DNA from: an uncultured Eubacteriales bacterium
GTDB taxonomy: Bacteria > Bacillota > Clostridia > Christensenellales > Aristaeellaceae
Assembly (NCBI GenBank): GCA_902764915.1
Contig: CACWXY010000067.1
Location: 1 to 45,066, forward strand
DNA length: 45,066 nt
Reading direction: 5' to 3'
Shown here: piece by piece, positions 26,578-40,721 of the stretch
Position numbering within the stretch: the first letter of the stretch is position 1
How the letters are laid out: each line of letters starts with the position of its first letter
Translations under genes and position numbers: made by a program
Notes under the pieces: generated by a model
The model's database searches: none
What the model saw: the letters and a program-made list of their open reading frames with translations, nothing else
What the model was told of the DNA's origin: nothing

Positions 26578-27300
26578 ATGCAGGATACGCTGCTGATTCG
26601 TGAAGTCCGCATGGACTGGGACAGGATCGCGCAGGACAGCTATCTGCGGCGCATTCCCGCTCTGTGCGGCAGAAGCACGCTTGCGTTCCATAAGGCGGTT
26701 ACCTTCTTTGCGGGCGAGAACGGCAGCGGTAAGTCGACGCTCCTGGAAGCAATTGCTGTCGCGGCGGGGTTTAACCCGGAGGGCGGAACCAGGAATTATC
26801 ACTTCTCCACCTATGACTCGCATTCCGCGCTCTGGAATGCCGTTCGCCTGGTGCGTGGCGTGCGCCCGCTACAGTGGGGCTATTTTCTGCGGGCGGAGAG
26901 CTTTTACAATGTGGCTACGCAGGAGGAAGCCTACAGCCGGGAACAGGGCGGCCGGCCGCAGCACTTTCATAAGCGGTCCCACGGCGAGAGCTTTCTGGCA
27001 CTGATGCAGGATACCTTCCGCGGGGAAGGCCTGTACATACTGGATGAGCCGGAGGCAGCCCTTTCGCCCCAGCGGCAGCTGACACTGCTTATGGAGATGG
27101 ATCGGTGCAGGCGGGCTGGGGCGCAGTTCCTGATAGCGACGCACTCGCCTGTTCTGCTGGGACTGCCGGATGCGGAGATTCTTTCGTTCGATCAGGGAAG
27201 TATTCAGCCGATCGCCTATGAGGAAACAGAGAGCTATCGGGTAACGTCAATGTTCATTGCGCATAGGGAACAGCTGCTGCGGCAGATTCTGGACGCATGA
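26578..27300 (+). CDS. AAA-family ATPase (ABC/RecF-like P-loop, AAA_21-type).
   Basis: Walker A is FFAGENGSGKSTLLEAI. Walker B and D-loop are GLYILDEPEAALSP. The H-loop is IATHSP. Confidence 0.7.
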   Translation: MQDTLLIREVRMDWDRIAQDSYLRRIPALCGRSTLAFHKAVTFFAGENGSGKSTLLEAIAVAAGFNPEGGTRNYHFSTYDSHSALWNAVRLVRGVRPLQWGYFLRAESFYNVATQEEAYSREQGGRPQHFHKRSHGESFLALMQDTFRGEGLYILDEPEAALSPQRQLTLLMEMDRCRRAGAQFLIATHSPVLLGLPDAEILSFDQGSIQPIAYEETESYRVTSMFIAHREQLLRQILDA

Positions 27301-27418
27301 GGCATACCGCGGAACGGGGCGTGACAGCGGGGCAGGGAAGAGCGAACAGAGACAACAGGAATGTGATATTCTATATATGAAGCATATGCGAGAGGAAAAG
27401 CCTTCGCAAAATAAACAG

Positions 27419-27446
27419 TTGACAATCACGGGAAAAGCAGTATAAT
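27419..27446 (+). promoter_or_regulatory. Consensus sigma-A promoter (TTGACA-16-TATAAT) for tRNA-Ser.
   Basis: The boxes are ttgaca at 27419 and tataat at 27441. The tRNA starts at 27474. Confidence 0.5.
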
Positions 27447-27473
27447 CTTTGCTACCGGCCAGCAGCAATGCGT

Positions 27474-27561
27474 GCAGAAGTACCCAAGTGGCCGAAGGGG
27501 CTCCCCTGCTAAGGGAGTAGGCGGGTTAAACCGCGCCCGGGTTCAAATCCCGGCTTCTGCG
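27474..27561 (+). tRNA. tRNA-Ser (anticodon GCT), class II with a long variable arm. CCA is not encoded.
   Basis: - The gene reads GCAGAAG-TA-CCCAAGTGGCCGAAGGGG-CTCCC-CTGCTAA-GGGAG-TAGGCGGGTTAAACCGCGCC-CGGGTTCAAATCCCG-GCTTCTGC-G.
- The acceptor stems pair perfectly. Confidence 0.85.
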
Positions 27562-27567
27562 CATCCA

Positions 27568-28618: not shown

Positions 28619-28888
28619 CCTCCTTTCTATTCGTGCATGTTGACATTGTATCACCAAATAATATAATGGAAAACAGTTTGTTGATCACTTATGGTGAGGA
28701 TTGAAGGCCGAGGTGATATGGACGATCCGGTTGTTTGCCATGTACAGACAACTGTAATTTTACGATTCTCGTTGATGAATCCTGAGTATAACATTATAAT
28801 AGTTCCTGACGCAGAGACACATTTCATGATTGTGTCTCGAAGACAGAAAAATACAAATATACAGCCCCATGCAGTATATCTCATTTCC

Positions 28889-30691
28889 ATGGAAACATAC
28901 AGCAATTTCTGCATTTGTCACAATTATGCTGAGGCAAGCAAAGGCTTTTTTGCAAGCAGGCGCATCCGCTGTGCCTGCGGGAATATCATCGATGTCAAAA
29001 CCGATCGAATGGCTACCATGACCTGTCCTTCATGCGGTAATGATGTGGTATATGATCAGGCAAAGGGCCGGGATGCCAAATGCCCGGTCTGTCATGCAAA
29101 CCTGATTTCCGATGCGTCCTTCAGCAACCTGGTTCATTTCCGCTGTGCCACCTGCGGCTGCCAGCTGCATGCCGACAAGGCGGCTGCCACAATCACCTGC
29201 CCGGTGTGCGACGCTGTCAGTGATGTGCAGCAGGAGCTCAAAAAGGCGGAAATGCGCGAGCAGGGGATCCCCGCGGTCATCAGCTATGAAGGGGACAATA
29301 CTGTCTTTGTGTGGAAGCATCCCATGACGGACTTTGTCACAGGCAGCCAGCTGATCGTTCATGAGAGCCAGGAAGCAGTCTTCTTCCGCAATGGAGAAGC
29401 ACTGGATTCGTTTGGCCCCGGCCGTTATACCCTGGAGACAGGGATCCTTCCGAAAATGAATCAGCTGTACCGTATACCGGTCCAGGGACAGCCCTTCCAT
29501 GCGGAGGTCTATTTCGTCAACCTGACCACCCAGATGGGAATCAAATGGGGGACCGCCAGCAAGGTGGGACTCTTTGATCCGGCCACAGGGCTGCATGTGG
29601 AACTGGGCGCCTCCGGCTCCTTTAACCTGCGCGTGACAGATCCCAGAAAACTGCTGATCAAGCTGGTCGGTACGACAGGCAGTCTCACCCAGCGCGATCT
29701 GTACGACAGCGGGAATACAGGGGTCTCCGCGGGCGCGTCCACAGGCGTTCAGAAGGGCTACTTCCGCACCATGATTGCCACCAGGGTCAAGGGAAACCTG
29801 GCCAGGATCATCAAGACGAATCAGTTCAATGTGCTGGAACTGGATGAACATGTGGATAGCATCAGTACGGCGCTGAAGGATGCCATCAATCCGGAACTCG
29901 AGGAATATGGCCTTGAGATGCCGGAGTTCTATGTGGCCAATATTGTCACTCCGGACGATGATCCCAACTTCCGCCGGCTGAAACAGCAGCACGCGGAAAT
30001 GTATCTGAAAGTCCGGGAGGAAGCAATCCGCAAGGCAGAAGCGGAAGCCGCGTTTGAACGCAAGGCTGTGGAAGCCCAGACGGCGGCCCGCATGAAAGTG
30101 ATCGGCGCACAGGGCGAAGCGGATGCGGCCCGTATTACCGGACAGGCACAGGCGGACGTGTACCGTATGCAGGCTGAGGCAGAAGCACAGGAAATGCGCA
30201 TGAAGGGATACACATACCAGCAGGAGACAGCACGTCAGGTGGGCGTCGAGGCCATGCGCAATGGCGGAGGTGCAGGTGTCACCGGTATCGCAGGCGAAGC
30301 GATGCAGCTGGGTGTGGGCCTTGGCGCTGTGGGCGGTGTGATTGGCATGACCCGTGAGGCGATTCAGCCGATGATGCAGTCTGTTGGAGAGATGGCACAG
30401 CCTGCCGGGACGCAGCCTGTCGGGACGCAGCCTGCCGCGGCCCAGCCGGAGAGCTGGAACTGTACGTGCGGCAAGACCGGTATTACCAGCAGATTCTGCC
30501 CGGAGTGCGGCGCGAAGAAACCGGAACCGCCCAAGCCCTGGGACTGCAGCTGCGGGGAGAAGGGCATTACCAGCAAATTCTGCCCCAACTGTGGTGCGAA
30601 ACGACCGGAGACCTGGGACTGCCCAGCCTGCGGTGCAAAGAGACTGAGCGGCAAGTTCTGCCCGGAGTGCGGCGCGAAGAAGCCTGAATAA
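28889..30691 (+). CDS. SPFH/band-7 (YdjI-like, 'virion core protein' type) protein with N-terminal zinc ribbons and three C-terminal zinc-ribbon repeats.
   Basis: - The N-terminus has CxxC pairs: CPSCGNDVV...CPVCHANLI, CATCGCQ...CPVCDAV.
- The central region is an SPFH-like beta/alpha core plus a long Ala/Glu/Gln coiled coil: ISYEGDNTVFVWKHPMTDFVTGSQLIVHESQEAVFFRNGEALDSFGPGRYTLETG....
- The C-terminus has three repeats of W(N/D)CxCG(K/E)xGITS(R/K)FCPxCGAK.
- The start is uncertain: ATG at 28889 or 29009. The ORF-track start at 28691 lies in AT-rich promoter DNA. Confidence 0.7.
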   Translation: METYSNFCICHNYAEASKGFFASRRIRCACGNIIDVKTDRMATMTCPSCGNDVVYDQAKGRDAKCPVCHANLISDASFSNLVHFRCATCGCQLHADKAAATITCPVCDAVSDVQQELKKAEMREQGIPAVISYEGDNTVFVWKHPMTDFVTGSQLIVHESQEAVFFRNGEALDSFGPGRYTLETGILPKMNQLYRIPVQGQPFHAEVYFVNLTTQMGIKWGTASKVGLFDPATGLHVELGASGSFNLRVTDPRKLLIKLVGTTGSLTQRDLYDSGNTGVSAGASTGVQKGYFRTMIATRVKGNLARIIKTNQFNVLELDEHVDSISTALKDAINPELEEYGLEMPEFYVANIVTPDDDPNFRRLKQQHAEMYLKVREEAIRKAEAEAAFERKAVEAQTAARMKVIGAQGEADAARITGQAQADVYRMQAEAEAQEMRMKGYTYQQETARQVGVEAMRNGGGAGVTGIAGEAMQLGVGLGAVGGVIGMTREAIQPMMQSVGEMAQPAGTQPVGTQPAAAQPESWNCTCGKTGITSRFCPECGAKKPEPPKPWDCSCGEKGITSKFCPNCGAKRPETWDCPACGAKRLSGKFCPECGAKKPE

Positions 30692-30866
30692 GAGAAACAG
30701 TGGATGGCTTGCAACGGCGAGAACCACATAGTTCTGAAGAACCAAAACCAGTACTGTGATGGATAAGTCCCGATGCTTTCTGTTTTCAGGATTACCACGC
30801 GAAGCAATATGCAGACGATGTCTTCAGAATAAGTTAGACATAGTATGACTTCAAGGAGAAAATACG

Positions 30867-33452
30867 ATGGCAGCATTGACCTGTAAGATGTGCGGCGGAA
30901 ACCTGGTGCTGACAGCAGACAGCAACGTCTGTGAGTGTGAATTCTGCGGAACCCGGCAAACAGTGCCCAATGCGGACAATGAGAAGAAGACCACACTCTT
31001 TAACGAGGCGAACCGTCTGCGGATGAACGCAGAATTTGATAAGGCGGCAGCAGTGTACGAGAGCATTGTCGCTGAATTCCCGGAGGAGGCTGAGGCCTAC
31101 TGGGGCCTTTGTCTGTGTACTTACGGCATTGAGTATGTGGATGATCCTGCAACGGGAGAAAAGAAACCCACCTGTCATCGGACGATGCCGCTGTCCATTA
31201 TGGAGGACAGCAATTTTGAGCAGGCCTGTGACTGTGCGGATGTTGTCGCCCGGCGGGTCTACCGGGATGAGGCAAAGGCCATTGACCGCATTCAGAAGGA
31301 TATCCTGTCCATCGTGAGTAACGAAGCGCCTTATGACGTATTTATCTGCTACAAGGAGACCAGTGAGGAAGGCAGCCGTACAGAGGACAGTGTGCTGGCA
31401 CAGGACATCTATGATGCTCTGACAGCAAAGGGACTGAAGGTGTTCTTCAGCCGGATTACGCTGGAGGATAAGCTGGGACAGCAGTACGAGCCGTATATCT
31501 ACGCGGCGCTTGCCTCGGCAAAGGTGATGGTCGCGGTGGGTACACAGTATGAGTATTACGATGCCGTGTGGGTGAAGAACGAATGGATGCGGTTCCTGGC
31601 CATGATGAAGAACGACCGGACCAAGACGCTGATTCCCTGCTTCAAGGATCTGGATGCCTATGACATGCCCAAAGAGTTCAAGCAGCTGCAGGCGCAGGAC
31701 ATGGGAAAGCTGGGCTGGCTGCAGGATCTGACGCGGGGCATTCTGAAACTGTGCGGGAAAGAAAACGGCACTGTGGGAAACAGTGCGGAACATGGGCCGC
31801 AGTCAGTGGTGCAGCAAACAGTGATCGGCGGCAATCCCACAGCGGTGGGTCTGCTGCAGAGGGCGAAGCTTTTCCTGGAGGATCAGAAATGGGAAGAAGC
31901 AGATCAGTATGCGGAACGTGTATTGGATATCGAACCAATGAACGCGGAAGCGTATCTGGTAAAGCTGATGGCGGAACTGAATGTCAGCAAGGAAGAAGCA
32001 CTGGCAGAACAGAAAATGCCTTTTGGTCAGTATGACAATTATCAAAAAGCTGTTCGTTTTGCGGATGAGGCGCGGAAGCAGCAGATCAAAGCGTTGAACG
32101 AAAAGGTGGAACAGCGCTACAGAGAAGAAAAAGAAAGGGCAGAAAACGCTCGAAAAACAGCCGTATTGGAAAAAGCAAAGACTGCATTGAAAGCGGCAGA
32201 ATCGCTGGAAGAATGCCAGGCGGTAACAGATATGCTGGGATCCATTGCCGGTTTTGCTGGCGTGACGGATATCATGGCGGGATGCACAGCAAAAGCTGCT
32301 GAAATCGAAGCGGTTAATGCTCGAATTGCAACAATGGAAACCGAATTAAAGGAGCAGCAGGAGAGATATCAGCAGGCATCAGAAAAAGCAATGGTTATTC
32401 ATCGTCAGCTCCAAGATACAGAAAAGGACAGAGACCGAATCGCTGCGTTACTGAAGAATGCCGAAAATGAGCTGAGCAATCTTCGGGGGCTTTTCACAGG
32501 AAAAAAGAGAGCAGAATTGGAGGCGGTAATCGCAACGAAAAGCAAAGAGCTCGCTAATGTTGAGGACCAGCTGGCAAAGGAGCAGTACGCTTACCAAACC
32601 GCACAAAACGGAATTCCTGAACAGCCAAACGAAACAGAAGTGAAATACATTATTGCAAACGAATATATGCAGGCCGGTCTTTATCGGAAAGCCTATAAGC
32701 GGTATAAACAGATTGTGGGATATAAAGACGTTGAAAGTCTGTTGAAAGATGATGATAATCTTGCAGCAGCAGTAGCAGCGGCACAGGAAGCAAAACGTGC
32801 ATCTTATCGCAATGTAGGGGGTTACGCAGTTTTTGGAAGTTATCCTCAAACTGCTGACGGTGTAGACAGCACTCCCATTGAGTGGCTTGTGCTGGACTAT
32901 GATGCGGAAAAGGACTGTGCATTGCTTATCAGTCGATACGGATTGGATGCGCAGCCATACAATAAAGAATGGACAAGCATTACTTGGGAACAGTGCACGC
33001 TGCGGACTTGGCTGAATGATACATTCCTGAACAAGGCATTTACAGCGCAGGAACAAACAGGAATTCTGGTGACCAACGTAGACAACAGCAGCAGTCAGGG
33101 ATACAGCAAGTGGAGTACCAGTGGAGGAAACAATACACAGGACAGGATTTTCCTGTTGAGCTATGCGGAGGCGAACAAGTATCTTGATGTTACGCATGAT
33201 AACAGTAACAACATGAAATCGAGAGTAGCACCGACAAACTATGCGAAAAAGCAGGGAGCCGTGACATGCAGCGACGACAAAACTGCGGATGGTGCAGCTG
33301 CAGGGCAGTGGTGGCTGCGTTCCCCCGGCTACTATCAGAGCCATGCCGCGCTCGTGTTCTGCGTCGGCTCTCTCGTCAACAGCAATGCCAGCGATGAAAA
33401 TGGTTGTGTTCGCCCTGCTTTGTGGATCAATCTGGAATCTGATATCTTCTGA
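30867..33452 (+). CDS. Zinc-ribbon / TIR-domain / coiled-coil / C-type-lectin-fold protein. This is the DGR target (variable) protein.
   Basis: - N-terminus: the zinc ribbon MAALTCKMCGGNLVLTADSNVCECEFCGTRQTV.
- TIR domain at aa ~156–290: YDVFICYKETSEEGSRTEDSVLAQDIYDALTAKGLKVFFSRITLEDKLGQQ...VMVAVGTQYEYYDAVWVKNEWMRFL. It has the DVFISY-like betaA, the G-L-K-VF alphaA/betaB and the W-x-x-x-E region.
- Coiled coil at aa 380–600.
- The C-terminal ~220 aa have a DUF1566/FGE-like C-type-lectin fold ending ...GQWWLRSPGYYQSHAALVFCVGSLVNSNASDENGCVRPALWINL. The VR is here.
- The RBS is aaggag. Confidence 0.8.
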   Translation: MAALTCKMCGGNLVLTADSNVCECEFCGTRQTVPNADNEKKTTLFNEANRLRMNAEFDKAAAVYESIVAEFPEEAEAYWGLCLCTYGIEYVDDPATGEKKPTCHRTMPLSIMEDSNFEQACDCADVVARRVYRDEAKAIDRIQKDILSIVSNEAPYDVFICYKETSEEGSRTEDSVLAQDIYDALTAKGLKVFFSRITLEDKLGQQYEPYIYAALASAKVMVAVGTQYEYYDAVWVKNEWMRFLAMMKNDRTKTLIPCFKDLDAYDMPKEFKQLQAQDMGKLGWLQDLTRGILKLCGKENGTVGNSAEHGPQSVVQQTVIGGNPTAVGLLQRAKLFLEDQKWEEADQYAERVLDIEPMNAEAYLVKLMAELNVSKEEALAEQKMPFGQYDNYQKAVRFADEARKQQIKALNEKVEQRYREEKERAENARKTAVLEKAKTALKAAESLEECQAVTDMLGSIAGFAGVTDIMAGCTAKAAEIEAVNARIATMETELKEQQERYQQASEKAMVIHRQLQDTEKDRDRIAALLKNAENELSNLRGLFTGKKRAELEAVIATKSKELANVEDQLAKEQYAYQTAQNGIPEQPNETEVKYIIANEYMQAGLYRKAYKRYKQIVGYKDVESLLKDDDNLAAAVAAAQEAKRASYRNVGGYAVFGSYPQTADGVDSTPIEWLVLDYDAEKDCALLISRYGLDAQPYNKEWTSITWEQCTLRTWLNDTFLNKAFTAQEQTGILVTNVDNSSSQGYSKWSTSGGNNTQDRIFLLSYAEANKYLDVTHDNSNNMKSRVAPTNYAKKQGAVTCSDDKTADGAAAGQWWLRSPGYYQSHAALVFCVGSLVNSNASDENGCVRPALWINLESDIF
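33308..33417 (+). other. DGR variable repeat (VR) at the 3' end of the target gene.
   Basis: The 110 bp are collinear with the TR at 36464–36573. Most mismatches sit where the TR has A (AAC/AAT codons). Confidence 0.6.
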
Positions 33453-33493
33453 TCTTTAATCTTTTGCGGGCAGTATACGGAAGAATGGGTAAA

Positions 33494-33630
33494 GCTGCAT
33501 GTGACTATGCAATTATGCGCCAATGAAAAGACGCTGCCCTGGATCAGGTGATGCAGATTACCTGCGTATATTATAAAAGCCATATATCTTGCTAGTTTTG
33601 CAGGATGTATGGCTTTTATGTTCTTATTCA
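33494..33630. repeat. ~140-bp direct repeat, copy A (~90% identical to 39664–39803). It contains a rho-independent terminator hairpin at ~33577–33622.
   Basis: The repeat reads gctgcatgtgactatgcaattatgcgccaatgaaaagacgctgccctggatcaggtgatgcagattacctgcgtatat...aaagccatatatcttgctagttttgcaggatgtatggcttttatgttcttattca. Confidence 0.7.
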
Positions 33631-34212
33631 CAATATAAGGAATGGATGCTTATGAAGACGGATGGCACACGATCCGTCCACGAATGCTTTGCATGAAGAG
33701 ATATCTATTAAATCACCATGTAAAGCAAGAAAATAGCTACGAGATCCCCATCTGATGTATGAGATTATTCATAAAATCAACAACAGAGGCGCGCAATTAT
33801 CCATAAAATCATCAATCAGACAGGAATAATATATAATGAACGAAAAGACAAAAGAGAACATCAAATAAATATCTACAAAGCATATACTATATGCATAATA
33901 AACGAATAAAATATTAACATAATAGCTATAATCTACTGCAATATCAAAGAAATATATAAAAATACCATGTCAAATGGTATCGACAGGTCTATTGCATCAG
34001 CAGTCCTGCCCATACAGTGTGGCCTATGGCTGACAATGGGACTTCCATAGAACATAAAGGATTACAGAATATGATAATAGCGCCTATATAGATACAAAAT
34101 ATCAATAAAATATATTAAAAATAGTAAATCATAATGATAGAAATATTGATATTTTCACATATTTCGCATACAATCTCAGCATGTGGTATTGCAACAGACA
34201 GGAGGCCACAAG

Positions 34213-34500
34213 ATGCAATTAATGGGACTCACAGTTGTGTTTACTGGGAAAATGCAGCGCTTGACCCGGGCACAGTGCAGAGAACTTGTGCTTTTGGCCG
34301 GCGGCATTGTTCAAAGCAATGTCAGCAGATATACAGATATCCTGGTTGTCGGCGCTTTTCGAAAAAGTCAACCGTGTGGTATCAGCTACAAACTGGAGCG
34401 AGCACTCTTCCTGTCTCGATCAGGATATCACATAAGAATAATACACGAGGATGAGTTTTATGAGATGCTGGGGATCCAACACTGGACCAACTGGTTGTGA
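34213..34500 (+). CDS. Stand-alone BRCT-domain protein (~95 aa).
   Basis: The protein reads MQLMGLTVVFTGKMQRLTRAQCRELVLLAGGIVQSNVSRYTDILVVG.... It resembles the LigA C-terminal BRCT (GxxxVxTG...R.E......GG.V..SVS.KTD.LV.G). The RBS is ggagg. It lies in a 30%-GC insert. Confidence 0.55.
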   Translation: MQLMGLTVVFTGKMQRLTRAQCRELVLLAGGIVQSNVSRYTDILVVGAFRKSQPCGISYKLERALFLSRSGYHIRIIHEDEFYEMLGIQHWTNWL

Positions 34501-34694
34501 AATCTTGATGCACAACAGCATGGTATGTCTTCCGTGCAGCCCTGTTGTGCAATTAGGCTGTCCGCCATTTATGGCACATGCAAAAAATACATTCACGACT
34601 CCAGGTGCACAAAAATCAGCTAGGAGAGGATGTGCATATAGAGTAAACCCTAGATGCGCACATCCAGTTAGTCCTGGAGAGGAGAAGATCGACG

Positions 34695-35276
34695 ATGGCA
34701 CGAATCGCATACATCAGAGTAAGCACAGAAGAACAAAACACCGCCCGTCAGGATTCCATGATGGATAAGCAGAATATCGATAAGACATTCACTGAAAAGA
34801 TCAGCGGTAAGAATACGGCACGGCCAGAGCTGCAGAGGATGCTGGAGTATATTCGAGAAGGTGACGTAGTCATCGTGGAAAGTTACAGCCGGTTAGCCAG
34901 GAGCACCAAGGATCTTCTCACACTTGTTGAGCAGATTCACGGTAAAGGTGCTGATTTCGTGTCTCTCAAAGAGAACGTAGATACCTCCACACCACAGGGA
35001 AAGCTTATGATGACAATCTTCGCTGGCCTTGCCCAGTTTGAGCGTGAACAATTGCTGCAGAGACAAAAAGAAGGCATCGCTGAAGCTAAAAAGCGCGGTG
35101 CCTATAAAGGTCGAAAACCCATCGTAATTGATGAAGATAGATGGAAGGAAGAAACATCTGCGTGGCGGGCAGGGAAACAATCCGCAGTGGTTACCATGCA
35201 GCATCTTGGGCTGAAACCACGCACATTCTACAATCGGGTGAAGGCGGAAGAATGTGACAGCGGTGGAAAAGAATGA
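34695..35276 (+). CDS. Small serine recombinase (resolvase/invertase family).
   Basis: The protein begins MARIAYIRVSTEEQNTARQ with a catalytic Ser at position 10. It has the ...GDVVIVESYSRLARSTKDL...KLMMTIFAGLAQFERE... core and a C-terminal HTH. The RBS is ggagaggag. Confidence 0.85.
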   Translation: MARIAYIRVSTEEQNTARQDSMMDKQNIDKTFTEKISGKNTARPELQRMLEYIREGDVVIVESYSRLARSTKDLLTLVEQIHGKGADFVSLKENVDTSTPQGKLMMTIFAGLAQFEREQLLQRQKEGIAEAKKRGAYKGRKPIVIDEDRWKEETSAWRAGKQSAVVTMQHLGLKPRTFYNRVKAEECDSGGKE

Positions 35277-35531
35277 GGGCACAAACTACTTTCATAGCGA
35301 TACAAGCATAATAGGAAGAAACGCATACACGGTAACCAATGTTTTGAATCCAAACGCTGCTCCATCGGTTATTATTGCGTCATCCGAAAATGAAGCGCTG
35401 GAGATTTATGCTGCGCTATATCATGAGATAACGATGCAAGTCGTAACTACTGAATTGCATTCCTTTCTTCGCGCTCAATTCTATCCTTTATGGTGTGTGG
35501 CGGATCTTAATTACGTGGATCCTAATTGATT

Positions 35532-35951
35532 CTATGCGGAACGCATGACCTCTTCATTCTCTGCAGATGGATCGAGCGCCTTTTCGATGTCGATGTAGTA
35601 ATAGCGGTCGATCTCCTTGCCCTTGTCCGTTTTCGTATGGACGGGCTTGTCGCTGTACAGAGCGTTGAAGATGGACGTCAGCCGCTGCTGGCCGTCAAGA
35701 ATAAGCTCACTGGGCACAGTCCCTTCAGGAACAACGGCGCCTTCGATGGGCTTGTACTTGAACTGAATCTCAGGGTTTCCATAGGTCAGGAACATTGCCG
35801 CGCCGACCGGGAAATTGTGGATGATGCTGGCAATCAGGGCCTTGATGCGGTTATCGTCCCATACCCAGCCGCGCTGAAAGTCCGGGAGCTGTGCTGCGCC
35901 TGACTGAACTGCCTTCATCAGATCCGTAATGGTTCTGTCGTTTGTTCTCAT
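35532..35951 (-). pseudogene. Truncated N-terminal DUF262 (ParB/Srx-like, GmrSD-type) fragment. The C-terminal nuclease half is absent.
   Basis: The translation has LPDFQRGWVWDDNRIKALIASIIHNFPVG...LDGQQRLTS, the DUF262 hallmark (DGQQR). Full-length members are ~550–600 aa. This fragment stops after 139 aa. Confidence 0.6.
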
Positions 35952-36056
35952 TGTCTAATTCTCGCTTTAGATGTACAATAATCACTCTCTTTAATCCTCT
36001 TTAATCCTCTTACTTTTTTAGCCAATTTAAGAGATTAAGAAGATTCATGCAATTAC

Positions 36057-36290
36057 GTGATGACCATCACACAGAAATCTCCAAAACAGTTCCGCTTCTC
36101 ATTGATTGGCCGCATGCAGGGCTATGTGATGGACATCGTGGAAGAACTGTATTATGCCAACGACATCTATGTCACACCCGCGAGCCGCTCGGGCTGGGCG
36201 CAGCGCCAGGCGCACCAGCGGAAAGCGATGGCGCCCCTGAAACTTCTCTCCTGGGTGGCGCAGGTCAGTATGGAACAGGGAGCGATTTAG
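36057..36290 (+). CDS. Small basic ORF immediately upstream of the TR. Weak candidate for the DGR accessory variability determinant (Avd).
   Basis: The only basis is position, upstream of the TR in a DGR. It is 77 aa, shorter than typical Avd (~110–130 aa), with no recognisable four-helix signature by eye. Confidence 0.2.
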   Translation: MMTITQKSPKQFRFSLIGRMQGYVMDIVEELYYANDIYVTPASRSGWAQRQAHQRKAMAPLKLLSWVAQVSMEQGAI

Positions 36291-36463
36291 CCGAAACAGT
36301 TTCAGCAGATCAGTGAGCAGTGCTGGAATACGCAGAATCTGCTTGGCGCGTGGATCATCAGCGATCAGAAGCGACTGAGCGGCGGAAAACAGAAGCAGGA
36401 ATCATCAGATCAGGGATCAGCACCCGAATAGGGTGTTCATCTGGGTACGGTATTGTACGGGTG

Positions 36464-36573
36464 GTGGTGGCTGCGTTCCCCCGGCACCAATCAGGACAAT
36501 GCCGCGAACGTCAACAATGACGGCTCTCTCAACAACAACAATGTCAACAATGACAGCGGTTGTGTCCGCCCCG
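36464..36573 (+). other. DGR template repeat (TR).
   Basis: Within this region, tggtggctgcgttcccccggcaccaatcaggacaatgccgcgaacgtcaacaatgacggctctctcaacaacaacaatgtcaacaatgacagcggttgtgtccgcccc is collinear with the VR. It is rich in AAC/AAT where the VR varies. A GC-rich structured spacer with a GNRA-looped hairpin (ctgcccgtGCGAacggcag) follows at 36590–36820. Confidence 0.65.
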
Positions 36574-36821
36574 TTTCCCCTTGCTTGCCAGCAGTCTGCC
36601 CGTGCGAACGGCAGCCAGTGCCCTGGGGAGAAGGAATACCGCTCCCTTTCGCAGGGAATTCCTCCGCAAGCGCTGCGGAGCCCTCGGAAAAACATGCCGA
36701 CGGAGGCCCGGACGGCGGGTGAAACAGACCGCCTTTCGCAATGCCTTTGGGACGCAGGGTTTGGCTTTATTCCTCTCGCCCTGCGTCCCCCGAGCGGCGA
36801 CTTTAAAACAGGAGGTTCATC

Positions 36822-37259
36822 ATGCTGAACATATGGTTTGGCGATATGCCGGATGTCATCTACGACACATCCACCTACTTCAGGCATTCTTACCGGGATC
36901 AATGGATCACCGACCCGCTGTCCGTGGAAATGATTCGTGATGTGGACCAGTCTGAAGTGGTCGATGCCAATCTGATTCAGAGCCCGGTCTTCGGTGCGAT
37001 TTCCCCTGTCCAACTGTCCGGTGGTGTCAAGACACTGATCCTGATCAGCAAGGTCAGGGATCAGGTCTTCAACGCGTCCAAATGCGGAGACAATTGCGCG
37101 AAGTGGCTGCTGAGGATCGCTGCAGACAGGAAAGTCGTTGTCAATCTCCGCCACCTTATGGACTTTGGGAATGAAGAGTTCAAAATCATGGTGATGAACA
37201 AAAAGAAGATTGCGCACAATATGCGGGAGCTCGTCCTGCTCGCGGGCGAGTATGTGTGA
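36822..37259 (+). CDS. Hypothetical 145-aa protein, first gene of the TR-downstream operon. It contains an LSGG-like motif (QLSGGVKTLILISK).
   Basis: The RBS is a strong aggagg. It lies 7 nt upstream of the ATPase gene. I recognise no family by eye. Confidence 0.5.
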   Translation: MLNIWFGDMPDVIYDTSTYFRHSYRDQWITDPLSVEMIRDVDQSEVVDANLIQSPVFGAISPVQLSGGVKTLILISKVRDQVFNASKCGDNCAKWLLRIAADRKVVVNLRHLMDFGNEEFKIMVMNKKKIAHNMRELVLLAGEYV

Positions 37260-37265
37260 GGCGTC

Positions 37266-38237
37266 ATGAACGGAAAGCATGCAGTAAAAGTCTCTGATAA
37301 GAGAGTTCGGTACAGCTTCGAGCTGGTGCGGAATATCACCGTCGTTCAGGGCAACAGCGGCACGGGCAAAACGACACTGTTTGATATGATATCTGCCTAT
37401 ACCAGGCTCAAGGAAAGAAGCGGCGTACAGATTGTCTGCGACAAGGCATGCGTTGCTCTTCACGCCGATTCAGACTGGCAGGCAAGGCTCAGAAGTATTC
37501 ATGACAGCATTGTCTTCATTGACGAGGATGCAGAATACATCGCGTCACATGCCTTTGCCTCATCCATCTGTCATACGGATAACTACTATGTCATCTTCTG
37601 CAGGGAATCCCTTCACGAACTCCCGTACAGTGTGGAGGAGATTTACGAAATCAAGACCAGTAAAAGGCTTCATACTTTCAAGAAGATGTATCGCCGGCAG
37701 AAGGATTATGTGTACGCCAAAGCTGAGGGAAGGGCAAAGACTTCTGCTTTACTGACAGAAGACTCGCATGCAGGGTATCAGTTTTACCTGCATCATTACG
37801 ATGGCACATCGGTTGTCTGCAGTTCTGCCGGCTCAAATTCAAGCATCTTTTCATGGCTTCAGGTGCATCACGATGAAAAAGTGTTTGTTGTTGCCGATGG
37901 TGCTGCTTTCGGCTCGGAGATGAACCGCGTCATGAAATTGCAGCACCAGTTTCCTGACAAGATCACCCTATGCCTGCCAGAATGCTTTGAGTGGCTGATC
38001 CTGCAATCGGGACTGATCGATATACCAGGCCTGGATGCACTGCTCGAAAGCCCAAGCGAAAGCATCGATTCACAGCGGTATTTCAGTTGGGAGAACTTTT
38101 TCGAAGAATACTTGATTCAGCAGACAGCCGGTACTCATTACGCATATTCCAAGTCGCAGATTCACAGGTTCTACACAGTGCGGGAGAACAGCAACAGAAT
38201 CGTAGCGCTGATCGCAGCCAATATGCCGAAATCATGA
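37266..38237 (+). CDS. P-loop NTPase (ABC/SMC-like Walker A).
   Basis: Walker A is VVQGNSGTGKTTLFDMI. A Walker-B-like SIVFIDEDAEYI is present. A C-terminal ~150-aa domain reads ...KVFVVADGAAFGSEMNRV.... The stop is 2 nt before the RT start. Confidence 0.6.
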   Translation: MNGKHAVKVSDKRVRYSFELVRNITVVQGNSGTGKTTLFDMISAYTRLKERSGVQIVCDKACVALHADSDWQARLRSIHDSIVFIDEDAEYIASHAFASSICHTDNYYVIFCRESLHELPYSVEEIYEIKTSKRLHTFKKMYRRQKDYVYAKAEGRAKTSALLTEDSHAGYQFYLHHYDGTSVVCSSAGSNSSIFSWLQVHHDEKVFVVADGAAFGSEMNRVMKLQHQFPDKITLCLPECFEWLILQSGLIDIPGLDALLESPSESIDSQRYFSWENFFEEYLIQQTAGTHYAYSKSQIHRFYTVRENSNRIVALIAANMPKS

Positions 38238-38238
38238 C

Positions 38239-39303
38239 ATGCGCAAGTTTGATTATGATAGGATTTGTGACTTTGGCAATCTCTACCGCGCCTATCTTGC
38301 TTCAAGACGAAGCAAGCGCGGTACTCGGGAAGTCATTCAATTCGAGATGAATGTAGGCCCAAATCTCTGTCAGTTACAGGAAGAACTCAGGAACCAGACT
38401 TATCGGCTTAGCGGTTACTACCACTTTACCATCCATGATCCGAAGGTCAGGGAGATCTACGCCCTGCACTATCGTGACCGGATTCTGCAGCACAGCCTTT
38501 GTGATAATGTGCTGGCTCCATATTTTGAGAATCATCTCATCTATGACAACGCAGCCTGTCGGACCGGAAAAGGAACCCTCTTTGCAATTAACCGGCTCAA
38601 CGGATTTATGCATGATCATTTCCGACAGCATGGAACTGACGGCTACTTTCTGAAGTGTGACATCCGCAAGTTCTTTGACAGTATTGATCATCAGATCTTG
38701 CAGCAGAGACTTGCGGCGATTGTTGACGATCCGAGAACGCTGCAGCTTCTCTTTCACATCATTGACAGTTACAAGGTGTCTCCCGGGAAAGGGATTCCCA
38801 TGGGGAACCAGACCAGCCAGTGGTTTGCCCTGTTTTATCTGGATCCGCTCGATCGTCTTGTCAAAGAAAAGCTCCGAATCAAATACTATACCCGATACAT
38901 GGATGACTGCATTCTGGTGCATCACAGCAAGGAGGCGCTCCACCAAGCTCTGTCTCAGATGCGGGAATTGGTTGAAAGCCTTGGGCTTTCTTTCAACGAA
39001 AAGACCCAGGTTTTCCCCATTGTTCACGTTGTTGAGTATTTGGGATGGCGTTTCTATCTGACGGAAACCGGCGCTGTGGTTCGCAGGCTGAAGAAGCACA
39101 GCAAGATCCGATGGAAGCATAGGCTGCGGAAGCTCAAGGCCCTCTATGCTTCAGGCGATGTAGAAGTCTCAAAGATCCTTGAAAGCGTTCAGAGCTTTCA
39201 TAACCACATGAGTTACGGGAATACATGGAAATTGTATCACGGCGTCATGGACAACTATGTTTTGACAAGAGAAACAAGAAACCCGAGAGTACCTCCTTCA
39301 TAA
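38239..39303 (+). CDS. Diversity-generating retroelement (DGR) reverse transcriptase.
   Basis: - The N-terminus reads ICDFGNLYRAYLASRRSKRGTREVIQFE....
- RT motifs: FTIHDPKVREIYALHYRDRILQHSL (1/2), FLKCDIRKFFDSIDH (A), GIPMGNQTSQWFALFYLDPLD (DGR-specific I/MGxxxSQ motif), YTRYMDDCIL (YxDD). Confidence 0.9.
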   Translation: MRKFDYDRICDFGNLYRAYLASRRSKRGTREVIQFEMNVGPNLCQLQEELRNQTYRLSGYYHFTIHDPKVREIYALHYRDRILQHSLCDNVLAPYFENHLIYDNAACRTGKGTLFAINRLNGFMHDHFRQHGTDGYFLKCDIRKFFDSIDHQILQQRLAAIVDDPRTLQLLFHIIDSYKVSPGKGIPMGNQTSQWFALFYLDPLDRLVKEKLRIKYYTRYMDDCILVHHSKEALHQALSQMRELVESLGLSFNEKTQVFPIVHVVEYLGWRFYLTETGAVVRRLKKHSKIRWKHRLRKLKALYASGDVEVSKILESVQSFHNHMSYGNTWKLYHGVMDNYVLTRETRNPRVPPS

Positions 39304-39338
39304 TCGCTGAATGAGAGTCAAAACAGATGATCGTCCGC

Positions 39339-39376
39339 AACCGCTGCTCAGCATTTGTCTGGCAGCGGTTTTTCTC
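39339..39376 (+). terminator. Rho-independent terminator after the RT (AACCGCTGC ... GCAGCGGTT followed by TTTTTCT).
   Basis: Seen directly in the sequence. Confidence 0.6.
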
Positions 39377-39663
39377 TGCTGTCATTTGGGTCTTGACAAC
39401 TACTCAGCCATGATACAGTTCTTCGTATAGGACGGTTGTCTTTCCGTGTGTTACTGCACCGTAGATAGAGGGGACAGGAATACAGCGCCTGCGCATTTCC
39501 AACATTGTCCCCCGTTCAATTTCTGTTGTGATCTTCGCCACAAATACCTGCGGGAACACACCATCTTACGACACCAACGGCTTACCTTTCGTAGTGACCT
39601 TTACGCATTTATAGTCACTGGTAAATGCTGTGCCCTGGAACAGTATACTGCATAGTGGATAAG

Positions 39664-39803
39664 GTTGCATGTGACTATGCAATTATGCGCCAATGAAAAA
39701 ACGATGCCCTGGATCAGGTGATGCAGATTACCTGCGTATATGATAATAGCCATACATCTTGTTTGATTTTTGCAGGATGTATGGCTTTTATGTTCTTATT
39801 CAA
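39664..39803. repeat. ~140-bp direct repeat, copy B (see 33494–33630). It contains a perfect terminator hairpin, AGCCATACATC...GATGTATGGCT-TTT.
   Basis: Seen directly in the sequence. Confidence 0.7.
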
Positions 39804-39814
39804 TTCTATCAATA

Positions 39815-40075
39815 TTAGGAATGTTGGATGGAACCAGGCATGTCGATCTTCCCGCGAATCACAGACAGATCTTCTTTGTGGCTGAGGTATTCGCGATACA
39901 GCCCCTGTTTCAATTGCCGTCCGATGCCTTTTGCAAGGATGGCGGCAAAAAGGTTGTGCAGGTTCTCAAATGCCTCTGTCTCTACGCTTTCGTAGCCGCC
40001 CTGATGCAGCGCCGTGAAAGCATAGGACAGCATGTAGTAAATGTTCCTGATGAAGATACTCTTATCCTTCGTCAT
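39815..40075 (-). pseudogene. N-terminal fragment (86 aa) of an McrC-like subunit of the McrBC restriction system.
   Basis: The fragment reads MTKDKSIFIRNIYYMLSYAFTALHQ...RGKIDM. It matches the conserved McrC N-terminus (E. coli: IPVRNIYYMLTYAWGYLQ...IKGRIEF). The remaining ~260 aa are missing. Confidence 0.55.
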
Positions 40076-40316
40076 TGAAACACACCACGCAGTATATTCT
40101 CCCAGCGCTGCAGCCTGCCTGCGTCATCGAACCAGTACTCGCTCAGCATGGGAAGAATCTTATCGAGCTCCGGCACCACCCGGTAAATGCGGAAGGGCTG
40201 ATCCCGCAACTGGCGGGATTCCACCATGGAGGAGGTCGCCTCGGATGCGAAGCCCTCCGTGTGATCCAGCACCAGGTAGGTGGTGGACATATACCCGTGC
40301 TTTCCGTCAGGGGCGG

Positions 40317-40721
40317 TCACCTCATACCAGCTGCTGTTGGTCTTGGCGATGACCTGTACAAAGGAGCCGTTTTATAGGTCGCCAGCACCTTGTACTTGGT
40401 GCCCGGCCCGGAGTGCAGGCGCAGGGTGCCTTTCCGGGTTTCCGCGCCGGAAAAGTCCGTGTTCACCCGCCAGACCTCCGTCCGGTTATCGTCACCAGGA
40501 GCGGTAAAGTTCACGCGGGGCGTCATGGCGGCAGGCACCGGAGCGCGAAGAATGCAGCCCTCCGCCAGCCGCTGCCATTTCCCAGCTTCATCGATGGGAT
40601 GCACCAGAGTCAATTCATATTCGCCGTTCAGCGTTTCCGTGACCTCCGCCGACAACGGAGCCAGGGTTCCGTTGCCGTTAGTAGAGAAGTCGGTGCAGTC
40701 GGCGGGATAGACGCAGATCAT
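40317..40721 (-). pseudogene. Phage tail-fibre / tail-endopeptidase (Tal-like) N-terminal fragment. The adjacent ORF 40072..40320 is an unassigned fragment.
   Basis: The fragment reads MICVYPADCTDFSTNGNGTLAPLSAEVTETLNGEYELTLVHPIDEAGKW.... This resembles the N-terminus of siphovirus Tal / prophage-tail proteins (M.I.LYD..F..NG.G.L......V.EELNGEYEL). The RBS is ggaggtg. Confidence 0.4.

Follow-up and report, generated by a model that had tools for sequence, protein, structure and literature searches.

The canonical diversity-generating retroelements (DGRs) are those of Bordetella phage BPP-1, with Mtd, Avd, a template repeat (TR) and the reverse transcriptase (RT) bRT, and of Treponema, with TvpA. 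DGR targets that bear a TIR domain have been described by Dore et al. (2024, PMC10907252), for example the target of Thiohalocapsa DGR 2, which combines CHAT and TIR domains, and STAND-NTPase targets with an N-terminal TIR domain. TIR-like domains have also been found among the variable proteins of cyanobacteria (Vallota-Eastman et al. 2020, PMC7517822), and DGR-linked lectin-fold domains have been proposed to be the hypermutating sensors of conflict systems that resemble adaptive immunity (Kaur et al. 2020/2021, PMC7159879, PMC8195603). In phages, proteins of the DUF6273 family are DGR targets, both in Faecalibacterium prophages (PMC11792537) and in the tentaclins (PMC10743442). The locus described here lies on a 45,066-nucleotide stretch of DNA (contig CACWXY010000067.1, called the window below) from an uncultured Eubacteriales bacterium of the rumen (Clostridia). 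On balance, and with moderate confidence, it is read as a genuine but recently disabled DGR, the target of which is a cytoplasmic protein made up of a zinc ribbon, a TIR domain, a coiled coil and a DUF6273 domain. The parts of the cassette and of the target, including the variable region (VR), are the following (window coordinates; aa, amino acids).

30867-33452, plus strand: 861-aa target with a zinc ribbon (aa 6-27), a helical region, a TIR domain (aa 158-280), a tetratricopeptide-repeat/coiled-coil region (about aa 325-648) and a DUF6273 domain of C-type-lectin fold (about aa 650-861)
31338-31706, plus strand: TIR domain of the target (Pfam TIR_2, 47 bits), with the codon of the candidate catalytic residue Glu239 at 31581-31583
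33305-33420, plus strand: VR, encoding approximately aa 813-852 of the target, in the lectin-fold domain; matches the TR
36039-36377, plus strand: avd pseudogene, homologous to aa 15-127 of an intact Avd of 129 aa
36461-36576, plus strand: TR, rich in AAC/AAT codons; matches the VR
36577-36805, plus strand: spacer downstream of the TR, leading straight into the RT start codon in relatives
36806-38244, plus strand: insertion with a DUF4869 gene (36822-37259) and a P-loop ATPase gene (37266-38237)
38239-39303, plus strand: DGR RT, an intact open reading frame (ORF) of 354 aa (Pfam RVT_1)

Like the canonical DGRs, the window has an RT that is closest to bRT, an avd homologue upstream of the TR and a TR rich in AAY codons. 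It differs from them in that avd is a pseudogene, the cassette is split and only 55% of the mismatches are adenine-specific, and in that the target is a cytoplasmic multidomain TIR protein, neither a phage tail fibre nor a surface lipoprotein. With the DGR sensors of multicellular bacteria studied by Dore, Kaur and Vallota-Eastman and their colleagues it shares a variable lectin-fold C-terminus fused to effectors that include TIR, and the proposed logic of a hypervariable sensor joined to a death or signalling effector. The window, however, lacks the STAND or NACHT NTPase, the MoxR-vWA ternary partner and the CHAT, kinase and caspase domains of those systems. Its lectin domain is of the DUF6273 and not of the FGE-sulfatase type, it has a coiled-coil linker and an SPFH partner, and the hosts of its family are gut and rumen Clostridia instead of filamentous cyanobacteria or aggregate-forming sulfur bacteria. 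A conflict system of the STAND or ternary kind would have a target with a central STAND NTPase or, beside the target, a MoxR-vWA-VMAP triad; Pfam detects no NTPase domain in the 861-aa target, and there is no MoxR or vWA gene in the window.

The phage DUF6273 targets have the same family of variable domain, a C-type-lectin-like fold and a VR at the C-terminal end of the domain. These are receptor-binding or decoration proteins of the virion, whereas the DUF6273 domain of the window is fused to an intracellular zinc-ribbon/TIR module in a chromosomal island. The established TIR effectors (Thoeris ThsB, Brucella BtpA/TcpB and SPARTA TIR-APAZ) resemble the target in the TIR fold and in a W-x-x-x-E glutamate, the residue that aligns with TcpB/BtpA. 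Unlike them, the target has no ThsA, Argonaute or other known partner nearby, its match to ThsB is marginal (E 0.004) and sensing would fall to the fused, mutable lectin-fold domain. A Thoeris system pairs a ThsB-type TIR protein with a ThsA (SIR2/Macro-SLOG) gene, and no ThsA was found among the nine neighbouring ORFs that were scanned (28691-40075).

A preliminary description of the locus, made from the sequence alone, knew of no characterised TIR-containing DGR target. This overstated the novelty; such targets had already been described by Dore et al. (2024) and Vallota-Eastman et al. (2020), so that the concept is published and does not constitute a new category. None of the earlier TIR-bearing targets is biochemically characterised, and none has the architecture or the host group of the window. 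The combination of a zinc-ribbon/TIR module, a coiled coil and DUF6273, with no NTPase and with an SPFH partner, in gut and rumen Clostridia was not found in a literature search of incomplete coverage.

The target protein and the cassette

The ORF at 30867-33452 is real and encodes the DGR target. The TIR domain first recognised from short motifs was recovered by a profile search, in which Pfam TIR_2 scored 47 bits (cut-off 28), and the C-terminal domain that contains the VR, first assigned to the C-type-lectin fold by eye, matches Pfam DUF6273 (aa 685-855, E 1e-28). The glutamate put forward as catalytic in the motif WVKNEW, Glu239, remains a candidate. A weak phmmer match (E 0.02-0.04) pairs it with the glutamate in the WPARE motif of TcpB/BtpA from Brucella, and N238, E239 and W240 are invariant among 118 cluster representatives of the N-terminal module. 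The WPARE glutamate is the catalytic residue of BtpA. Five cysteines near the N-terminus (C6, C9, C22, C24 and C27) are invariant across 22 homologues and fit a predicted zinc ribbon; the same homologues share a second invariant Cys/His cluster (C82, C84, C103 and H104).

The full-length AlphaFold model of the target is of low confidence over aa 1-320, with a predicted local distance difference test (pLDDT) of 45-76 in the TIR part, and no structural claims are therefore made on the zinc ribbon or on the TIR interfaces. Foldseek matches of the target TIR model to the MAL TIR and SPARTA TIR domains come from this low-confidence region. A sequence search of the PDB with the C-terminal domain gave no match, but a fold search with the same domain did succeed. 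PADLOC and NCBIfam assigned the target to no convincing family, the best match being a marginal ThsB-like one (E 0.004).

No hydrophobic or transmembrane (TM) segment is present in the 861-aa target. The highest hydrophobicity over 19 residues is 1.27 and a TM helix occurs in only one of 120 close homologues, and the interpretation of the protein as a transmembrane receptor was rejected on these grounds. A few members of the family do have a TM helix between the coiled coil and DUF6273 (P0010, aa 553-571; L031, 10001-12370). Such a sequence implies a Toll-like topology for these members, in which the lectin domain would be outside and the TIR domain inside.

The RT, recognised at the outset by its MGNQTSQ and YMDD motifs, is confirmed by Pfam RVT_1 and by its closest solved relative, the Bordetella phage DGR RT (8ub7, E 1e-38, aa 7-337). 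The motifs GIPMGNQTSQ and RYMDD align with those of 8ub7 and place the enzyme in the DGR clade. The collinear TR and VR were likewise borne out: blastn aligns 36464-36571 with 33308-33415 at 77% identity (E 1.5e-18), and the VR is located at the 3' end of the target gene, at the C-terminal end of the lectin-fold domain, as expected of a DGR target. The repeat spans 108-118 nt (at its widest 36459-36576 and 33303-33420) at 75-77% identity. No third copy of the TR/VR repeat and no second VR was found in the window by blastn at word size 7.

An intact avd gene would be expected next to the TR, and intact homologues of 129 aa are present in three related loci (L012, L088 and L106). In the window, the Avd of L012 aligns by tblastn with 36039-36377 (E 6e-36), and the short ORF that lies between target and TR weakly matches NCBIfam DivGenRetAVD. 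The alignment is interrupted by an in-frame TAG at 36288-36290, where a 95% relative, L095, has CAG (Gln). The 5' end, about 14 codons, is lost as well: in a three-frame translation, a stop at 36036-36038 lies directly upstream and the first start codon does not occur before 36057. The lesion is found in every independent assembly, which shows that the TAG is not a sequencing error.

The cassette is also interrupted twice. The gap between the target and avd is 2.6 kb in the window as against about 160-180 nt in L012, L088 and L106. Between the TR and the RT, two relatives (L102 and L093) are homologous to the window at 36054-36805 and again from 38245, with just 14 nt in between. This break in homology indicates that the 1.44-kb DUF4869/ATPase pair was inserted at the point where the TR spacer would otherwise meet the start codon of the RT. 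The preliminary claim that all core DGR parts are present is thus upheld for the RT, the TR and the VR, but not for avd.

The inserted pair consists of a clear DUF4869 gene (Pfam E 4e-54) and a gene for a 323-aa P-loop ATPase that has only weak, sub-threshold STAND/AAA matches. It is missing from L102, L093 and the L088-type cassettes and present in the 95% relatives L094 and L095, and it also occurs near TIR/SPFH loci that have no RT (L025, L030 and L074). The two genes appear to behave as a mobile module. Their ratio of nonsynonymous to synonymous substitution rates (dN/dS) is about 0.10, and no publication on DUF4869 was found in the literature search.

Divergence of the variable region and the state of the element

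Searches that started from the RT, the target or the McrBC fragment recovered contigs of the same strain from some ten assemblies or sequencing runs. Their identity to the window, over a stretch that includes the VR, is 99.99-100%; one of the assemblies has a single substitution somewhere in it. The preliminary description named two observations that together would count against it, a VR without adenine-directed variation in population data and an RT without catalytic residues. The first holds among the assembled consensus sequences of the strain, which show no VR variation, and the second does not, as the RT keeps its catalytic motifs. One sample, ERZ1029116, contains a target contig with the same VR and also a contig that is 0.4% diverged around the RT.

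Variation with an adenine bias does appear in a more distant comparison. The 90%-identity cluster of the target has one other sequence, P0121 (locus L145), with 95% identity in protein and 96% in DNA. The two target genes differ at 97 nucleotides, 22 of them in the 123-nt VR, a density of 18% versus 3% elsewhere (p 2e-10), and 14 of these 22 are at TR-adenine positions (p 5e-6). The dN/dS between the two genes is 0.135 over aa 1-300, 0.33 in the linker (aa 301-640) and 2.4 over aa 796-850; over aa 641-795 it is not calculable, there being one difference in 465 nt. In an alignment of 120 homologues, the column entropy is 1.78 bits at VR codons with a TR adenine in position 1 or 2 and 0.48 at the others (p 3e-6). 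The window and L145 are syntenic from 26158 to the target stop codon, after which the gene sets are different.

A second hypervariable patch directly precedes the stretch that the TR covers (33255-33302, aa 797-812). It differs strongly from L145 and has high entropy in the family. It may be a trace of an ancestral TR that reached further, or the result of selection on a loop nearby.

Intact relatives were identified in a metagenome scan with the window RT, which yielded 50 loci. Three human-gut assemblies (L088, L089 and L091) have an RT 80% identical to that of the window, and their target genes are 98.2-98.7% identical to one another. The gene order is SPFH, two small genes, an 1830-aa target that runs from a zinc ribbon and TIR domain to DUF6273, and then a full-length Avd, TR and RT. 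Among the three TRs a single base differs, in L088, and the VRs differ from the TR and mutually at adenine positions only. L106, with an RT 56% identical to that of the window, has an 817-aa TIR/DUF6273 target followed by Avd, TR and RT. DGR relatives that are intact and, to judge by their repeats, active thus exist with TIR/DUF6273 targets. Other relatives are partial: L012 has a clean TR/VR pair and an RT reduced to the last 107 codons, and L031 has mere scraps of avd, TR and RT. Many other relatives of the RT diversify DUF6273 proteins that have no TIR module, in agreement with the phage targets cited above. The TR of L102 pairs with a distal DUF6273 gene and not with the nearest one. In the three human-gut relatives, a HEPN-domain protein and an unannotated 216-aa protein are encoded between the SPFH gene and the 1830-aa target (2876-3487 in L088).

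In a working DGR the TR/VR mismatches are expected to be (almost) exclusively at TR adenines. A scan of the relatives for TR/VR pairs, in which the cut-off for the adenine share was 75%, gave among others 14/14, 9/9, 7/7, 15/15 and 17/17, and 25/26 for L106; L012 has 18/19. In most relatives the share is 83-100%, and in the weakest pairs 78-81%. In the window it is 55%, or 16 of 29. The adenine bias is significant (16 of 28 A positions versus 13 of 90 others, Fisher p 2e-5), but the specificity is only partial, as 13 of the 29 mismatches (45%) fall at non-adenine positions. Several of these 13 are synonymous third-position changes (GTG/GTC, GTT/GTC, CCT/CCC). Several others are changes derived in the window TR with respect to the TRs of L095 and L102, among them AAC to ACC at 36487 and AAC to GAC at 36495, and about five are private to the window VR. 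Altogether, drift has separated the window TR from those of relatives at 8 positions. The excess of non-adenine mismatches is therefore partly due to drift of the TR, which still keeps 28 adenines. The window VR does not resemble its own TR more closely than it does those of L102 and L093.

The RT has a dN/dS of 0.10-0.12 against L095 and L094, and the avd remnant one of 0.03 against the 95% relatives, which indicates that both genes were constrained for most of the time of divergence. Together with the divergence from L145, this constraint suggests that the DGR worked on its target until fairly recently and is now decaying. An ancient fossil was considered and rejected because of the same dN/dS values and the adenine-biased divergence from L145. 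The copy in the window is probably inactive. The avd lesions, the insertions, the drift of the TR, the non-adenine changes in the VR and the identical assemblies make it most likely that the VR is frozen, while the target gene itself is under purifying selection. Decay may have proceeded independently in sister lineages, as the sequence of L094 points to: one nucleotide is missing from a T-run of its RT gene, at the equivalent of window position 39011, which cuts the RT short after motif 7. Unless the missing nucleotide is an assembly error, it is a genuine second inactivation. As a separate observation, the avd remnant (36093-36377) has a dS of 0.68 against L095, compared with 0.12-0.20 in the flanking genes, and a low dN; it may be a recombination tract.

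Several points weigh against a disabled element of this kind. The same-strain assemblies are essentially one clone, possibly from one rumen study, and consensus contigs are blind to VR variants of low frequency. Selection on the VR, or an RT that is not fully specific, may be behind some of the non-adenine mismatches, instead of the time that has passed since homing last occurred. The RT is intact and under purifying selection, and the element could still work if Avd were dispensable or supplied by another DGR. On the side of function, the defence role and the NADase activity are putative, the PADLOC match to ThsB being marginal (E 0.004) and the pLDDT of the TIR part low (45-76).

The most serious alternative, though an unlikely one, is that the DGR still acts on the window VR at a low rate, the RT making use of a truncated Avd, of none or of one encoded elsewhere, and that consensus sequences from one clone hide the variation. 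An RT with all its motifs and a dN/dS of about 0.1, the 28 adenines kept in the TR and the adenine bias of the divergence from L145 are all compatible with activity, and assemblies that are 99.99-100% identical over about 12 kb sample little evolutionary time. Against this, avd has two disabling lesions, and Avd is reportedly essential in the Bordetella phage DGR. Some of the 13 non-adenine mismatches are synonymous, and recent homing would have erased these. The VRs of the intact relatives differ even between 98%-identical strains, whereas a strain 0.4% diverged shares its sample with a target contig of unchanged VR. Finally, the RT is frameshifted in the sister lineage L094.

The zinc-ribbon/TIR family and its possible role

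The target belongs to a large family, and one neighbouring gene accompanies many of its members.

28691-30691, plus strand: SPFH/Band-7 protein with several zinc ribbons (Pfam Band_7_1, E 2e-37, and zinc-ribbon matches)

Gene callers place the start of the SPFH gene at about 28886 (601 aa). The protein has N-terminal zinc ribbons and, at its C-terminus, CPxCG zinc-ribbon repeats encoded by DNA repeats of 84 nt and 39 nt (30438-30688).

At least 8,000 homologues of the full-length target share its TIR_2 and DUF6273 architecture. Its N-terminal 300 residues match 3,954 clusters (clustered at 50% identity, E <= 1e-30); among the 150 matches listed, nearly all are N-terminal, in proteins of about 370-1450 aa. 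This module is 67-86% identical across clusters even where the remainder of the protein differs. Pfam finds TIR_2 in 56 of 57 representatives, the C-termini of which are DUF6273 (9), RCC1 (10), ankyrin (4), leucine-rich repeats (2-4), RHS (1) or, in the rest, unrecognisable. A scan of species-level genomes gave at least 574 matches, mostly in metagenome-assembled genomes of gut and rumen Clostridia, and 78 species loci with the TIR module were kept for the analysis of neighbourhoods. In these the module often occurs in two or three tandem paralogues, and an SPFH/Band-7 homologue is present in 49 of the 78, as against RT remnants within 10 kb in only 2. The DGR link is thus sporadic, and the pairing of TIR with SPFH is the conserved core. 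The SPFH and TIR genes look like a conserved pair.

By analogy with known DGRs, the TR of an intact system would be transcribed, RT and Avd would copy the TR RNA into cDNA with misincorporation at template adenines, and the cDNA would replace the VR, so that the lectin fold would have about 17 codons of its ligand-binding face rewritten. The architecture suggests that the lectin-fold domain would then bind a ligand, most plausibly a component of a phage or other invader. Binding would bring about clustering of the TIR domains through the coiled coil, and the clustered domains would cleave NAD+ in a Glu239-dependent reaction and so produce a defence or abortive-infection response. The SPFH protein is a possible scaffold. 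The pattern of the family, in which the TIR module is constant, the binding domains are exchanged and the VR diversifies, fits such a diversifiable sensor with a TIR effector. The preliminary proposal of a hypervariable sensor joined to a TIR effector is therefore consistent with the architecture, the DGR link and the pattern of the family, with the reservation that the DGR in the window is not intact.

It is rather improbable, by comparison with this immune role, that the TIR domain is an interaction scaffold or a housekeeping signalling module and that the ligand of the lectin domain is a host or self molecule. In favour of this, many bacterial TIR proteins lack a demonstrated function. No defence-system profile matches convincingly (PADLOC ThsB, E 0.004 only), and the N-terminal module is unusually conserved across the 50% clusters (67-86% identity), which suggests a fixed cellular partner. 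Against a non-immune function stand an invariant glutamate of the catalytic type, interchangeable C-termini made of binding repeats, the occurrence of the genes as tandem paralogues, and diversifying evolution in the VR. The locus, moreover, lies amid remnants of restriction systems and toxin-antitoxin genes.

The surrounding island and the significance of the locus

The remaining features of the island are as follows.

33471-33644, plus strand: direct repeat copy A (about 180 nt), 87% identical to copy B, with a 20-nt hairpin at 33573-33619
34183-34500, plus strand: BRCT-like ORF, probably a gene fragment (Pfam BRCT, E 3e-5)
34695-35276, plus strand: small serine recombinase of the resolvase/invertase type (Pfam Resolvase, E 1e-44)
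35532-35951, minus strand: N-terminal fragment, 139 aa, of a GmrSD-type restriction enzyme (Pfam GmrSD_N, E 2e-19), abutting the truncated avd
39641-39823, plus strand: direct repeat copy B (about 180 nt), just past the stop of a McrBC-like fragment (39815-40075, minus strand)

The 2.6-kb gap between the target and avd is foreign or fragmentary DNA and holds an AT-rich stretch, the BRCT-like fragment, the serine recombinase and the GmrSD-type fragment. The NCBIfam matches of the BRCT-like ORF are confined to the C-terminal ends of the PolIII-epsilon and LigA models, and the GmrSD fragment matches only the start of the PADLOC HEC-05 profiles, which have about 600 positions. Fragments of this kind are strewn over the island, the McrBC-like short ORFs extending over 39815-40320 on the minus strand; in one assembly (L004) an indel at about 40017-40084 gives a longer McrBC ORF of 155 aa. 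Just upstream of the SPFH/TIR island, at 26578-27562, a gene for an AAA_21 (AbiEii-like) ATPase is followed by tRNA-Ser (27474-27562).

The two repeats flank a 6.2-kb block that contains the serine recombinase, the gene fragments, the avd remnant, the TR, DUF4869, the ATPase and the RT. They could be a pair of recombination sites or the scar of a duplication, and neither the plasmids searched nor any of the fetched loci gave a match to them. A search of 28-41 kb with Rfam for a TR-spacer RNA or a repeat RNA gave only two chance-level snoRNA matches. Contigs that lack the block were sought via the McrBC fragment, and all of those found have the same arrangement.

That the RT/TR cassette did not evolve with this target but arrived on the repeat-flanked segment with its serine recombinase and has its true target, if any, elsewhere, the likeness of TR and VR being one of family level, is very improbable: the enclosing repeats, the different genes right after the target stop codon in L145, a VR no nearer to its own TR than to those of L102 and L093 and the distal match of the L102 TR speak for it, but the same type of target directly precedes avd, TR and RT in L012, L088-L091 and L106, the VR differences between the window and L145 concentrate at the adenines of this very TR in the same register, and no empty site was found.

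With its decaying DGR, the window catches such an element midway, with avd dead and the RT intact, and this bears on how often the DGR targets found in genomes are currently mutable. Thresholds of adenine purity such as 75% would miss decaying loci of this kind. Until now, the case for DGR-diversified intracellular sensors has been made chiefly in multicellular cyanobacteria and sulfur bacteria. The window and its intact human-gut relatives extend the same logic to abundant Clostridia of gut and rumen, in a simpler architecture of lectin domain, coiled coil and TIR. This simplicity makes the idea tractable, as it involves one gene (perhaps with SPFH), one candidate catalytic glutamate and natural variants of the VR.

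A broader reading is put forward tentatively, as a possibility that falls short of an even chance: the zinc-ribbon/TIR module with its SPFH neighbour would be a large, undescribed family of intracellular immune receptors in Clostridia of gut and rumen, with about 4,000 clusters at 50% identity and exchangeable recognition domains at the C-terminus (DUF6273, RCC1, ankyrin, leucine-rich repeats), of which the DUF6273 subset is rewritten by DGRs that leave frozen specificities behind. If this were true, an antibody-like mutable sensor would be wired directly to a TIR effector, with no NTPase switch, in unicellular gut anaerobes. The DGR cassettes would have been repeatedly gained and lost, with frozen specificities such as that of the window remaining.

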